Below are positions 4,024 to 23,886 of a stretch of 24,687 nt of DNA, one piece after another (positions within the stretch are counted from its first letter, which is position 1; each line of letters starts with the position of its first letter). A program made the position numbers and the translations under genes. Origin of the DNA: a virus (lineage: Duplodnaviria > Heunggongvirae > Uroviricota > Caudoviricetes); IMG/VR virus record IMGVR_UViG_2711768042_000001, positions 1-24,687 of that record, one strand, 5' to 3'. Below the pieces are notes generated by a model, which worked only from the letters and a program-made list of their open reading frames with translations, did not search any database and was not told the DNA's origin.

Positions 4024-4100
4024 TGGCGTGGCATGCAGGATTCGAACCTGCGACCAACCGCTTAGAAGGCGGTTGCTCTGTCCAACTGAGCTAATGCCAC
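4024..4100 (-). tRNA. tRNA-Arg (anticodon UCU, decodes AGA), phage-encoded
   Basis: Reverse complement folds as a canonical cloverleaf: acceptor GTGGCAT/ATGCCAC, D-arm GCTC-AGTTGGACA-GAGC, anticodon arm ACCGC-CTTCTAA-GCGGT (anticodon TCT), T-arm GCAGG-TTCGAATC-CTGC, discriminator G and encoded CCA. Differs from E. coli argU as I recall it (from memory, not a comparison). Confidence 0.9.
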
Positions 4101-20054: not shown

Positions 20055-20453
20055 TTAAGTGTATACCTCCTGTTGCTCAGTGGTGATTTTACCCGGCAAC
20101 ACCTTTTTAGCTTTGTGCGGGTTAACCACATGGCCTTTAGTCCAGTACTCGTAGAGCACATCGTCACACTCTTCCTGATACTGGATTACCTTGTCGCGGA
20201 TTTCAGGGCGGACTTTGTTAGGGCTGATGCTGTTCAACCAAGCTGCCAATTTTCGTAAAGCCATACAAATCATGGCTTGCACCCCACCGGCAGAAGGTAT
20301 GGTGATTTCCACCATACCCTTCGAGAAGCGTTGAGAAATCTTCTTATGTTGAGATTTCCAGTCTAGCCCCATTCCCTCAACGATAGGTTTCATTGGGGTA
20401 TACGGTTCGCCGTTGTGATTGACAACATAAAGCTCTGCGCCGTGGAATGGCAC
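20055..20453 (-). CDS. antirepressor N-terminal-domain-like protein (P22_AR_N-like), possibly truncated
   Basis: N-terminus FHGAELYVVNHNGEPYTPMKPIVEGMGLDWKSQ...VIQYQEECDDVLYEYWTKG has the style of P22-antirepressor N-domains (from memory). Starts with GTG, no clear SD, only 132 aa, so may be a remnant. Confidence 0.45.
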   Translation of the reverse strand: MPFHGAELYVVNHNGEPYTPMKPIVEGMGLDWKSQHKKISQRFSKGMVEITIPSAGGVQAMICMALRKLAAWLNSISPNKVRPEIRDKVIQYQEECDDVLYEYWTKGHVVNPHKAKKVLPGKITTEQQEVYT

Positions 20454-20590
20454 GTTGATAGTAGTGACAAATTTGAAACATCGCTGGTTGTAAGCCAGCA
20501 GATGCTCGTTATTTTACGTCGCGGCACAATTTCTCGCTGCTGGCTCTTTTACACACATTAACCAAATATGGTTGATTTTAATATTTATAC

Positions 20591-20886
20591 GCGCTTATCA
20601 TTACCTTTGCGGTAAATTTACATTGCATTCCTCTTGTGCCATAGTAATCGGGCACTGGCAAAATCCAGTGTCGGGATTGGTCTCCCGGATTACTAAGTGG
20701 CGCATACCACGCCAGACGTGGTTTTTTTATGCGTATAGCACAGTCATGCCAGAATTATGGTGGGCTGAATGGGGGTCCGAAAGGACGCCGGTACCACTTA
20801 GGCCGGTAAGACCAACTCCGTTCAGTTCACCACCATCTGATTGGTCTCAGCGGTGGTGATGTAATTCGCTAAGTGGAGACGCCATC
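20591..20886 (+). promoter_or_regulatory. structured ~295-nt leader upstream of the AntA-like gene (copy 1 of an inverted pair)
   Basis: About 85-90 percent identical to the reverse complement of 23122-23412; contains TTACC-TTTGC-GGTAA (20601-20615), two stem-loops, an intrinsic terminator, then complementary sites AGACCAA (20809-20815) and TTGGTCT (20841-20847) before the RBS GGAG. Confidence 0.7.
20651..20727 (+). ncRNA. candidate C4-like antisense sRNA, copy 1 (SL1 CACUGG-CAAAAU-CCAGUG; SL2 CGGGA-UUGGUC-UCCCG; terminator CCACG-CCAGA-CGUGG then U7)
   Basis: Three consecutive hairpins ending in a U-run, about 77 nt; SL2 loop UUGGUCU is complementary to AGACCAA in the downstream leader. 5' end not determined. 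Confidence 0.45.
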
Positions 20887-21543
20887 ATGAACGCTCAACT
20901 CATCCCCGTATTCAACGGCACTATATCTAACGAAACAGCCCTACTTTGTAATGCCCGCGATCTGCACGCTTTTTTAGGTGTTAAAAAGGTGTTTGCAGCA
21001 TGGATTACAAATCGCATTTCAGAATACGAATTCATTGAAAATCAAGACTATATTTTGCTTTCCAATTTGGGAAAGCAAACATCTGGTAGAGGCGGCCACA
21101 ACCGCAAAGAGTACCACCTCACCCTTGATACAGCCAAAGAGCTGGCGATGGTCGAGCGTAACGAAAAAGGTCGCCAGATACGACGCTACTTCATTGAATG
21201 CGAGAAACGTTTAAGACAACAAGAAACAAAGGTGGAGAAGGTCTTGTCAGGCTTCATGCCAGCCATTATGGAGGCGATCAAGCTGGAAGACAAAAAAGAA
21301 TACAGCGCCCAACTGAAGCCCGGCTACCGCAGCCTGATTCATTCGCCGTCTGGTGTTCTCGGCCTGACGGAGAACTCACTGCTGATGAATTTGCTGAACC
21401 AGTTACAGGAAGACGGGCATGATGTATCGGGCGCGGCAGCGGAGCTGACCACCATGTTCTGCTACATCGTCGGTGTGAGCAAATGCCTGCGTGATATCCA
21501 GACGCACGCGGAGTACATCAACGACAAGGCAGGGTTCTTCTGA
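20887..21543 (+). CDS. antirepressor, AntA-type N-domain plus shared C-terminal domain
   Basis: ATG with GGAG 8 nt upstream; N-domain ...[16 protein letters not shown]...[30 protein letters not shown] matches the AntA pattern; the C-terminal 80 aa are near-identical to the C-terminus of the 22435..23121 gene. Confidence 0.75.
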
Positions 21544-21568
21544 CGAGCGGCGGCACAGGGATGTGCAA
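21301..21568. repeat. inverted repeat arm A (antirepressor C-domain coding plus 25 bp of 3' flank)
   Basis: About 94 percent identical to the reverse complement of 22410-22677. Confidence 0.8.
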
Positions 21569-21592: not shown

Positions 21593-21593
21593 A

Positions 21594-21617
21594 GGCCGCT
21601 TTCGCGGCCTTGTTTTT
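21594..21617 (+). terminator. rho-independent terminator (GGCCGC-UUUC-GCGGCC then TTGTTTTT)
   Basis: 6-bp GC stem with tetraloop and T-run directly after the AntA-like gene. Confidence 0.7.
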
Positions 21618-22409: not shown

Positions 22410-22677
22410 AGGCACATCCCTGTGCCGCCGCCCGTCAGAAGACCCCTGCCTTGTCGTTGATGTATTCCGCGTGGGTCTGGATATCACGCAGGCATTTACT
22501 CACACCGACGATGTAGCAGAACATGGTGGTCAGTTCCGCCGCCGCGCCCGATACGTCGTGCCCGTCTTCCTGTAACTGGTTCAGCAGATTCATCAGCAGT
22601 GAGTTCTCCGTCAGGCCGAGAACACCAGACGGCGAATGAATCAGGCTGCGGTAGCCGAGCTTCAGTGGGGCGCTGTA
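22410..22677. repeat. inverted repeat arm B (antirepressor C-domain coding plus 3' flank)
   Basis: Reverse complement about 94 percent identical to 21301-21568. Confidence 0.8.
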
Positions 22678-23121
22678 GGTTTTGTTCTCTACCTTCATTG
22701 CCTGCATCACTGCTGATGCTGTGGCGCTGGCTACCTGGTCGGCAACCATCTTTATGCGTTCTTCCTGCGGGAGCGAGTTTTTAATGTAACTTCCGGTGCG
22801 GCGGATCTGAGGAAGAACCTCACCTGTAACCCATTTACGAAAGCGGTAGGGGGTAGTGCCTGGTGTCACCGCATCGCGGCAGCGGAGGATCAGTGTGTAG
22901 AGGCCTGACTCGTTGATAATATTGGTTTCGCCTTGACGGCCTAAGTTAAATTTAGCCCTTTCATCATCATCAAGAGATTTTATTGACATAGTGGGGTTTG
23001 TCAGTTGAAGAGCTTTAATAACGTCTTTGGCAACAAACCAAGGATTTCCATCAATAACAATGGCTCGAATGGTTGCTTCTGATTCAAAATGAAAAACAGA
23101 TGGGGTTACGTTAGCAGTCAT
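22435..23121 (-). CDS. antirepressor, Bro-N-type N-domain plus shared C-terminal domain
   Basis: ATG 23121 with AGGTGAT upstream (track ORF extends to 23274 but that N-terminal extension overlaps the conserved leader). Bro-N pattern: IDGNPWFVAKDVIKAL...NESGLYTLILRCR...YRFRKWVTGEVLPQIRRTGSY. Confidence 0.75.
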   Translation of the reverse strand: MTANVTPSVFHFESEATIRAIVIDGNPWFVAKDVIKALQLTNPTMSIKSLDDDERAKFNLGRQGETNIINESGLYTLILRCRDAVTPGTTPYRFRKWVTGEVLPQIRRTGSYIKNSLPQEERIKMVADQVASATASAVMQAMKVENKTYSAPLKLGYRSLIHSPSGVLGLTENSLLMNLLNQLQEDGHDVSGAAAELTTMFCYIVGVSKCLRDIQTHAEYINDKAGVF

Positions 23122-23274
23122 AGCGATCACCTTTGTAGTTAGGTTAATCACCACTACCGACGCCAATCGGTTGGTGGTGAACTGTGCAGGGTTGGCGTAA
23201 CCGGCTACAAAGGACCCGGCGCACCTTTCGGTGCCCCCACACAGCCCACCATAGAATAGGTGCGCTTTACACAT

Positions 23275-23352
23275 AAAAAAACCGCTTATGCGGCATATGT
23301 GCCTCTGTAGTAACTCGGGACGCCAATCCCGGCACTGGATTTTGCCAGTGCC
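23275..23352 (-). ncRNA. candidate C4-like antisense sRNA, copy 2 (SL2 loop UUGGCG; terminator CCGC-AUAA-GCGG then U7)
   Basis: Same three-hairpin architecture as copy 1; loop UUGGCGU is complementary to ACGCCAA (plus 23192-23198, read on minus) in its own leader. Confidence 0.45.
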
Positions 23353-23387
23353 CGATTACTATGGCACAAGAGGAGTGCGATGTAAAT

Positions 23388-23402
23388 TTACCGCAAAGGT
23401 AA
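23388..23402. promoter_or_regulatory. palindromic motif TTACC-GCAAA-GGTAA, site 5 of 6
   Basis: Exact string at the upstream end of leader copy 2, mirroring 20601-20615 in copy 1. Confidence 0.4.
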
Positions 23403-23433: not shown

Positions 23434-23691
23434 TTATCTGGTTTGTTTTCGTAATTGTTCGGCACAATAGTCGAGATGTGTTTGCAGATCCTGCATAGAC
23501 ATCTGTGAGCTGGTGACGTAGTTAATCAGTGCAGTCAGTTCGGCAAGTGGGCCATCGACATTAAATCCATCCTTATCGAGATCCCGGAGTAATTTCATCA
23601 AGTGCGATCCCTCCACCAGTGACCTGACGCCTCCCGGCGTGTGAATCCTTTCGGTAAATCCGTCTTCCAGTGGATAGTGATACTGCTGCAT
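23434..23691 (-). CDS. small protein (about 85 aa) homologous to the antirepressor C-terminal domain only
   Basis: ATG 23691 with GGAG 6 nt upstream (track start 23814 is probably too long because it would cover the LexA box and operator motifs). YHYPLEDGFTERIHTPGGVRSLVEGSHLMKLLRDLDKDGFNVDGPLAELT aligns with [50 protein letters not shown]. Confidence 0.55.
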   Translation of the reverse strand: MQQYHYPLEDGFTERIHTPGGVRSLVEGSHLMKLLRDLDKDGFNVDGPLAELTALINYVTSSQMSMQDLQTHLDYCAEQLRKQTR

Positions 23692-23710
23692 CTTATCTTC
23701 TCCATGCAAT

Positions 23711-23730
23711 AACTGTATATTTATACAGTA
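23711..23730. promoter_or_regulatory. LexA (SOS) box: AACTGTATATTTATACAGTA
   Basis: CTGT-N8-ACAG with an AT-rich spacer, 18 of 20 matches to the E. coli consensus TACTGTATATATATACAGTA; 20-40 nt upstream of the 23691 start on the minus strand. Confidence 0.6.
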
Positions 23731-23767
23731 GCAAATAATTTGTTTGCTATCCAGCACGTTTTGCAAA

Positions 23768-23782
23768 TTACCTGAAAGGTAA
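23768..23782. promoter_or_regulatory. palindromic motif TTACC-TGAAA-GGTAA, site 6 of 6
   Basis: Exact string, identical core to site 1 (4423-4437). Confidence 0.4.
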
Positions 23783-23886
23783 TATCTATTCGTATTTACA
23801 GTCTTTCTATCCATATGTGGTTTTCCAGGTAATAGAATAACCAGATATGCGGCGCAACGGGTGCTGCGACTATCTGGAGATTTAAC

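Follow-up and report, generated by a model that had tools for sequence, protein, structure and literature searches.

The immI operon of phages P1 and P7 is made up of c4, icd and ant (Citron & Schuster 1990) and is annotated in the P1 record NC_005856. In these phages, C4 is processed from the operon transcript and represses by pairing of its a' and b' sequences with a2 and b2 at the ribosome-binding site (RBS). The P1 record lists, in order, the promoters, a1 (TTTGACA) within the loop of a hairpin, b1 (GTTAGTGC), c4, a2 (TTTGACA, directly after c4), b2 (GTTAGTGA, at the RBS), icd and ant. The a1/b1 region of P1 scored 51.0 bits with the c4-a1b1 model and 35 bits (E 8.5e-6) with the full IsrK model, including the terminal hairpin and the U-run. 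Since this region matches c4-a1b1 and also aligns with the full IsrK model, IsrK can be equated with the a1/b1 element.

A second described locus is isrK–orf45(STnc1160)–anrP of prophage Gifsy-1 (Hershko-Shalev 2016, PMC4825925). IsrK supplied in trans lifted anrP translation about 140-fold, an effect lost in the a1 mutants G28A and G31A. The IsrK terminator is leaky there, and IsrK in trans also lifted read-through about 8-fold (PMC4825925). The a' mutants C162U and C159U were strongly derepressed, and compensating a1 changes restored repression partly (224 and 327, vs 4) (PMC4825925). Hfq binding by IsrK and its activation of the downstream antirepressor in trans come from this Salmonella work only (PMC4825925). 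In the Gifsy-1 sequence (NC_010392), IsrK (79.3 bits) was followed by the 'orf45'/STnc1160 region, which matched C4 with 69 bits, and the c4-a1b1 model scored 48.1 bits. Numbered from IsrK +1, G28 and G31 fell in a1 (nt 26-32) and C162 and C159 in a' (nt 158-164), so that both pairs of the published compensation tests, G28:C162 and G31:C159, coincided exactly with a1:a'. Another Salmonella locus, tried as the Gifsy-1 locus, was set aside, being a related module that lacks orf45.

The c4 and c4-a1b1 motifs were defined by Weinberg 2010. Barquist 2013 equated P4 seqA with IsrK and the P4 CI RNA with C4, and named the pair "IsrK-C4 immunity system". In a 2025 review, IsrK and c4 still appear as entries unrelated to each other. 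N15 is also cited as structurally similar.

The window (i.e., the whole stretch of 24,687 nucleotides analyzed here) was a Uetakevirus-like (ε15/phiV10-type) prophage. A scan of the entire window against Rfam gave four matches above curated thresholds, corresponding to two tandem isrK + C4 pairs. The region preceding the gene of an AntA-type protein on the plus strand is very probably one of two IsrK–C4 (P1 immI-type) RNA modules by which the prophage gates antirepressor synthesis. The locus is an ordinary member of the long-known P1/P7/N15/P4/Gifsy-1 IsrK–C4 immunity module; the type of system was already known, and what is known about IsrK–C4 systems as a kind is left unchanged by the window data. 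The particularities of the locus were the occurrence of two modules of different specificity in one prophage (modules A and B, on the plus and minus strands, respectively) and what looks, from the sequence, like direct control of the Shine-Dalgarno (SD) sequence of ant without an icd or orf45 leader ORF, apparently the commoner layout in the family.

The 5' part of module A (plus strand) held a promoter-like site (20617-20645; TTTACA and an extended -10, TG-n-CATAGT, spaced by 17 nt), found by a consensus scan. It lay at constant spacing to position 1 of IsrK and was conserved in the majority of 111 distinct upstream regions. A palindrome read from the sequence, TTACC-N5-GGTAA (20601-20615), abutted the -35 and may act as an operator; its TTACC and GGTAA arms were kept, with a variable spacer, in many homologous upstream regions. 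The IsrK/c4-a1b1 element followed at 20652-20728, made of SL1, SL2, a linker and an intrinsic terminator with a U-run. It matched RF01394 with 65.5 bits (gathering 50) over model positions 1-77 of 77, folded with a z of -2.6, and was closed by a terminator-like hairpin (20706-20722) with seven T after it, retrieved by the terminator scan. The loop of SL2 presented a1, UUGGUCU (20677-20683), complementary to a' and counterpart of P1 a1, and the linker contained b1, CUAAGUGG (20693-20700), complementary to b' and counterpart of P1 b1. The shorter c4-a1b1 model (RF03163) stayed below its gathering score of 46.7 in both modules, with 38.9 bits in A (E 1e-7) and 44.3 bits in B (E 3e-9), which was a near miss; the same bases passed the longer isrK model.

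A C4 antisense RNA homologue was located directly downstream, at 20753-20837 (RF01695, 61.2 bits, gathering 45, full model 1-87 of 87). The C4 consensus is a long closing stem around two hairpins, with the loop of hairpin 2 and the 3' junction single-stranded. The minimum free energy (MFE) fold of 20753-20837 was this consensus (-41.2 kcal/mol, z -5.5) and left a' and b' unpaired; MFE and centroid folds reproduced it both there and in the C4 of module B (23170-23256). The loop of hairpin 2 carried b', CCACUUAG (20794-20801), complementary to b1 and b2, and the single-stranded junction 3' of that hairpin carried a', AGACCAA (20809-20815), complementary to a1 and a2. Conserved contexts were found at the ends of the C4, UUAU|GG in 5' and CCACC in 3', matching the annotated P1 c4 ends, and the mature RNA is predicted by alignment with P1 c4 to span about 20759-20834.

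The leader of the antirepressor gene contained a2, TTGGTCT (UUGGUCU in the RNA; 20841-20847), in the loop of a CACCACC/GGTGGTG hairpin (20827-20859, arms 20828-34 and 20852-58; MFE -17.1 kcal/mol, z -3.3). The 5' arm of this hairpin doubled as the 3' strand of the closing stem of C4, and because one strand is common to both, the hairpin and the C4 fold are mutually exclusive. The second target site, b2 (CUAAGUGG, 20869-76), overlapped the SD sequence GGAG (20875-78), and the ATG stood 8 nt beyond, at 20887. The end of a2 was 27 nt from the SD tetramer, so the SD overlap belonged to b2 and not to a2. The sites of module A were thus ordered a1, b1, b', a', a2 and b2, with a1 identical to a2 and b1 identical to b2. 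In both modules, pairing involved 7 nt for a':a2 and 8-9 nt for b':b2, and b2 overlapped the SD. The downstream gene (20887-21543) encoded a protein of 218 aa with an AntA N-terminal domain (Pfam PF08346, E 3.9e-26), and the terminator scan placed a terminator-like site after it, at 21593-21610.

The preliminary description of this region, made from its letters only, had rightly reported, at the coordinates it gave, a three-hairpin unit ending in a terminator, TTGGTCT in the SL2 loop and again near the SD, AGACCAA between them, and the CACCACC/GGTGGTG hairpin with the second TTGGTCT in its loop. It had taken the three-hairpin unit for a C4-like antisense RNA and AGACCAA for its target in the leader, and these roles were swapped: the unit is the IsrK element bearing the target-site copies a1 and b1, and AGACCAA is the a' recognition site of a C4 lying inside the supposed leader. 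The covariance-model search that it proposed did return a C4 match, located at 20753-20837 and not at the three-hairpin unit, and the proposed folding of the region yielded the C4 consensus there, with the hairpin upstream of the SD as an alternative to it. The pairing it assigned to the SL2 loop held for AGACCAA, but the downstream TTGGTCT is of the same sense and cannot pair with that loop. Its single-site scheme overlooked the b1/b'/b2 set, which covers the SD, and likewise the whole of module B. The earlier interpretation was therefore partly supported, with the type of system and the pairing right, the antisense and target roles exchanged and half of the sites missed.

The sites of module A mapped one to one onto P1 immI, which bore out the initial assignment to the P1/P7 immI c4 type. 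Both loci showed a promoter, a1 in a loop, b1 in a linker, a terminator-like hairpin, a C4 exposing b' in its hairpin-2 loop and a' in its junction, a2 just 3' of C4, and b2 at an RBS ahead of an antirepressor. They also shared the IsrK + C4 tandem, the C4 fold and its UUAU|GG and CCACC ends, and the P1 hairpin arrangement, CCTGC...GCAGG around TTTGACA, was recognized by eye. The a and b sequences differed between the two. The RBS covered by b2 in P1 is that of icd, a small ORF in translational coupling with ant, whereas b2 in the window covered the RBS of ant directly, without an icd-like ORF. The antirepressor families were different, those of the window having AntA and Bro-N N-terminal domains, and the phage harboring the modules was a Uetakevirus-like prophage rather than a P1-like plasmid prophage. 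The window also lacked the C1 operator of P1, and another palindrome abutted the -35 instead.

Gifsy-1 shared with the window the IsrK + C4 tandem and a b2 over the antirepressor SD, and its a specificity (UUGGCGU/ACGCCAA) was identical to that of module B. It differed by an open frame of 45 codons across C4, the translation of which is needed for anrP and which had no equivalent in the window, by a published model in which the downstream RNA is not regarded as a C4 repressor, and by its location next to the Q antiterminator of a lambdoid prophage. The anti-immunity locus of N15 (Ravin 1999) displayed the same tandem, with IsrK at 62.4 bits and C4 at 78.8 bits upstream of an antirepressor operon; comparison of N15 Ant with the AntA-type protein of the window gave no significant similarity (E 0.04). 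The seqA–CI–seqC system of P4 differs in that its small RNA acts mainly by premature transcription termination, and in that it controls replication genes and not an antirepressor. In APSE phages of Hamiltonella (Rouïl 2020, PMC7313666), isrK and c4 likewise lie next to a Bro-N gene, or to an AntA gene in whitefly APSE, and the annotated a'/b' regions match the region upstream of the adjacent gene (PMC7313666). These phages belong to another host and phage lineage, and their modules are known from sequence annotation.

The second complete IsrK–C4 module (module B, 23351-23121, minus strand) preceded a Bro-N antirepressor gene, and its site sequences differed from those of module A. All its features lay on the minus strand: a promoter-like site (23386-23358), an IsrK/a1b1 element (23275-23351; RF01394 74.2 bits, RF03163 44.3 bits) with a1 UUGGCGU (23326-20) and b1 CUACAGAGG (23310-02), and a C4 homologue (23170-23256; RF01695 79.5 bits, fold z -3.6) with b' CCUUUGUAG (23213-05) and a' ACGCCAA (23198-92). 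The isrK and C4 matches covered their entire models in B as well. Its leader (23121-23166) held a2 UUGGCGU (23166-60) in a hairpin loop and b2 CUACAAAGG (23138-30), which overlapped the SD AAGGUGA; the ATG stood at 23121. In this module a1 was identical to a2, while b1 and b2 differed at one position (A to G), which results in a G·U pair with b'. The palindrome TTACC-N5-GGTAA was also found before module B.

The gene downstream of module B (22435-23121, minus strand) encoded a protein of 228 aa with a Bro-N N-terminal domain (Pfam PF02498, E 2.9e-20). Its C-terminal part aligned with that of the AntA-type protein over 125 aa with 74% identity, being near-identical over roughly the last 70 residues, and the common C-terminal coding region formed a 282-nt inverted repeat (94%). 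From their AntA and Bro-N domains, both proteins are predicted to have antirepressor activity.

All six sites changed together between the modules, from UUGGUCU/AGACCAA and CUAAGUGG/CCACUUAG in A to UUGGCGU/ACGCCAA and CUACAAAGG/CCUUUGUAG in B. By base-pair counts, 2 of the 7 nucleotides of the a sites differed, and the b sites had unrelated sequences. Energies from duplexfold and cofold did not separate cognate from non-cognate pairs; duplexfold was dominated by hairpin stems and cofold gave essentially no gain, loop-loop contacts being beyond both programs. Modules A and B are expected to be controlled independently, because specificity sits in the a and b sequences, which differ. If so, the two modules, each gating a different N-terminal domain on a largely common C-terminal region, would provide the prophage with two independently addressable induction switches.

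The arrangement was followed across homologues gathered with a 19-base IsrK seed from viral contigs and one genome per species, which yielded 200 distinct modules spread over many Gammaproteobacteria. The exact a1/a'/a2 triplet was kept in 183 of them, the sites varying together, which satisfied the expectation of the preliminary description that the complementarity be present in homologous prophages. Exact b':b2 pairing of at least 7 nt was obtained in 169 of the 200 modules and the full b triplet in 139. The 200 modules displayed at least 6 a classes, a diversity underestimated by the seed, which fixed the first four bases of a1 (TTGG) and left three a positions free, and 71 b' variants, the b sites being unconstrained; a and b were freely combined. 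In 155 of the 169 modules with b':b2 pairing, b2 ended in or ran into an SD-like tetramer, and the ATG followed in most cases at 7-13 nt. Where a start could be identified (158 modules), the ORF directly after b2 encoded at least 100 aa in 108 cases and fewer than 100 aa in 50. Hosts included Enterobacterales, Vibrio, Marinomonas and Endozoicomonas, with single matches in Methylococcaceae and Nevskiaceae MAGs.

Family membership, folds, complementarity of the sites, their three-way covariation and the position of b2 on the SD were directly established; from these, a mode of action of module A can be proposed in which transcription, terminator efficiency, RNA processing, the block of translation and the action of IsrK as a decoy are inferred. 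Transcription would begin at about 20652, from the predicted promoter at 20617-20645. Many transcripts would end at the IsrK terminator (around 20728), releasing an IsrK RNA of roughly 77 nt, and those reading through would proceed across C4 (20753-20837) into ant. C4 would then be cut from the read-through transcript, its 5' end probably by RNase P at UUAU|GG (about 20759), by homology with P1, and would expose b' (CCACUUAG) in the loop of hairpin 2 and a' (AGACCAA) in the junction strand. Pairing of b' with b2 (CUAAGUGG, overlapping the SD) and of a' with a2 (UUGGUCU) in the ant leader would block ribosome binding and keep the antirepressor off. IsrK, with its second copies of the target sites (a1 and b1), may compete for C4, both in cis, as part of the read-through transcript, and in trans, as the released short RNA; repression is predicted to be relieved when IsrK is in excess, as measured in Gifsy-1. 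Specificity would be set by the a and b sequences.

The Gifsy-1 results can be read in the same terms, with IsrK as a1/b1 target mimic of a P1-type C4, 'orf45'/STnc1160 as C4, and activation by IsrK through titration of C4 off the SD-covering a2/b2, although this unifying reading is put forward only tentatively. The pairing of the SL2 loop with AGACCAA, proposed initially for the window, is real, and its Gifsy-1 equivalents are the pairs G28:C162 and G31:C159 tested there by compensatory mutations. The partial restoration in the Gifsy-1 double mutants fits the action of C4, because a2 stays mismatched with a' in these mutants. The published Gifsy-1 model involves an inactive mRNA fold and translational coupling via orf45, with no processed C4 repressor, and constitutive orf45/STnc1160 did not counteract IsrK; both observations count against the C4 model. 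Mutations of a1 in cis raised basal expression in Gifsy-1 (93 and 218, vs 4), which counts against a pure decoy. Because these cis mutants were derepressed, a1/b1 is suggested to help repression as well, for instance by C4-dependent termination.

Termination may also be the main outcome of the pairing. As in P4 and N15, C4 bound to a1/b1, a2/b2 or both would mainly cause premature transcription termination, at the IsrK terminator or in a Rho-dependent manner downstream, with ribosome occlusion being secondary. This possibility, less probable than not yet compatible with translational control by C4, is favored by the occurrence of the same tandem in N15, by the structural homology of P4 seqA and CI RNA, a system working by termination, with IsrK and C4 (Barquist 2013), and by the position of b1 directly before the IsrK terminator. 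The raised expression of the Gifsy-1 cis a1 mutants and the read-through gained with IsrK in trans point the same way. The overlap of b2 with the SD, seen in 155 of 169 modules and usually 7-13 nt ahead of the ATG, argues however for translation as the selected target, and the translational effect in Gifsy-1 (about 140-fold) was far above the transcriptional one (about 8-fold).

The roles assigned initially, with the three-hairpin RNA (20652-20728) as C4-like repressor and AGACCAA with the rest of 20729-20886 as a mere target leader, are improbable. The complementarity of the SL2 loop to AGACCAA, the terminator making a discrete short RNA plausible, and the binding of short IsrK to the downstream region in trans in Gifsy-1 would all agree with them. 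The 'leader', however, contained the full-length C4 match (61.2 bits) folding as its family consensus, AGACCAA stood about 60 nt upstream of the SD, and the SD-proximal copy had the same sense as the SL2 loop. Moreover, IsrK of Gifsy-1 activates antirepressor translation instead of repressing it, and the upstream element has as its P1 counterpart the annotated target sites a1/b1.

Control through a leader ORF as in Gifsy-1, in which an 'orf45'-like small ORF across C4 would be translated to switch on ant by coupling while IsrK opens the RBS, is highly unlikely in the window. Such control was genetically shown for Gifsy-1, and an AUG conserved at the base of the C4 stem, on its 5' side, was present in the window, but the frames starting there stopped after 3 codons in module A and 15 codons in module B, and none reached the ant start. 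A search of both modules for an orf45- or icd-like leader ORF found none open, and no ORF between C4 and ant. The ORF of at least 100 aa directly after b2 in 108 of 158 homologous modules likewise argues against a leader ORF.

Chance complementarity around an ordinary promoter and terminator, without RNA-RNA regulation, has a negligible probability: when 20560-20900 was dinucleotide-shuffled 5000 times, 129 of the shuffles (2.6%) contained one ordered triplet of 7-mers (X, reverse complement of X, X), which is only suggestive taken alone, but the double arrangement with a second, nested triplet (CTAAGTGG at 20693-700, CCACTTAG at 20794-801 and CTAAGTGG again at 20869-76) arose in none of 20,000 shuffles, the sites showed three-way covariation over 200 modules, and two Rfam families scored above gathering. 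Shuffles and covariation thus ruled out a plain promoter and terminator or chance, and upheld the initial view of the region as a riboregulator rather than a plain promoter.

By deciding on antirepressor synthesis, an IsrK–C4 module determines whether a prophage is silent or induced, and it also sets which incoming relatives the lysogen is immune to. For orthogonal RNA switches, the large space of a and b specificities (at least 6 a classes and 71 b' variants) is of practical interest. The closest phage record was that of Escherichia phage phiv142-3, to which the region was 98.4% identical and which annotates only a "putative anti-repressor protein"; isrK and C4 RNA genes were missing from that record and from the features listed for the matching E. 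coli genomes, and are to be marked in both modules as an annotation correction. The stretch was present, in part, in 1371 of 5426 complete E. coli genomes.

A second complete IsrK–C4 module (module B) was found on the minus strand of the window (23121-23386), before the Bro-N antirepressor gene and convergent with module A, the IsrK–C4 tandem that precedes the AntA-type antirepressor gene. Its a and b sites, i.e., the C4 recognition segments and their matching copies in IsrK and the antirepressor leader, differed from those of module A. The b sites differed between modules in all four two-module loci (the window and the comparison loci L053, L101 and L104), though the a site could be identical in both modules, as in L101. 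The palindrome TTACC-N5-GGTAA immediately adjoined the -35 element of both IsrK promoters (20601-20615 and 23388-23402). Its arms were conserved in homologues while the spacer was variable, and it is a candidate operator for some repressor.

The two antirepressor genes displayed near-identical 3' ends, forming an inverted repeat of 282 nt with 94% identity (21285-21566 and 22412-22693), within which the C-terminal region common to the AntA-type and Bro-N-type proteins was encoded. The repeat copies flanked a DUF4760 gene (179 aa, PF15956; 21679-22218, minus strand) located between the two convergent antirepressor genes, and the segment between them could invert via the repeat. Terminator-like sites were present on either side of the DUF4760 gene, and its slot varied among E. 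coli genomes, some of which harbored a YafO-family toxin there. The DUF4760 gene itself appears to be a moron or cargo gene. Two short antirepressor-related ORFs were encoded on the flanks of the modules (23434-23814 and 20055-20453, both on the minus strand). One, of 126 aa, shared 40% identity with the C-terminal region common to both Ant proteins (E 8e-15), while the other, of 132 aa, displayed a P22_AR_N domain and nothing else. These ORFs may represent remnants, or they may encode stand-alone domain proteins that belong to a modular set of antirepressors.

A subset of modules (L002, L007, L011, L026, L028, L044 and others) possessed a promoter unlike the others, as well as an ORF of 62-81 aa immediately 3' of b2, the b site over the SD, which replaced the long antirepressor gene (one example starts MATTPTQNPQFI...). 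This ORF resembled the leader ORF of the icd type of P1, a small ORF between c4 and ant that is coupled to ant. Gifsy-1 'orf45'/STnc1160 (NC_010392, 34131-34214, minus strand) was a full-length member of the C4 family (69 bits). The first AUG of orf45 (A107) is the one in the AUGG that is conserved where the C4 stem has its 5' base, the same point at which the mature c4 of P1 starts.

A tRNA-Arg gene (anticodon UCU; 4024-4100, minus strand) was also encoded in the window, amid the early and packaging genes of the prophage.
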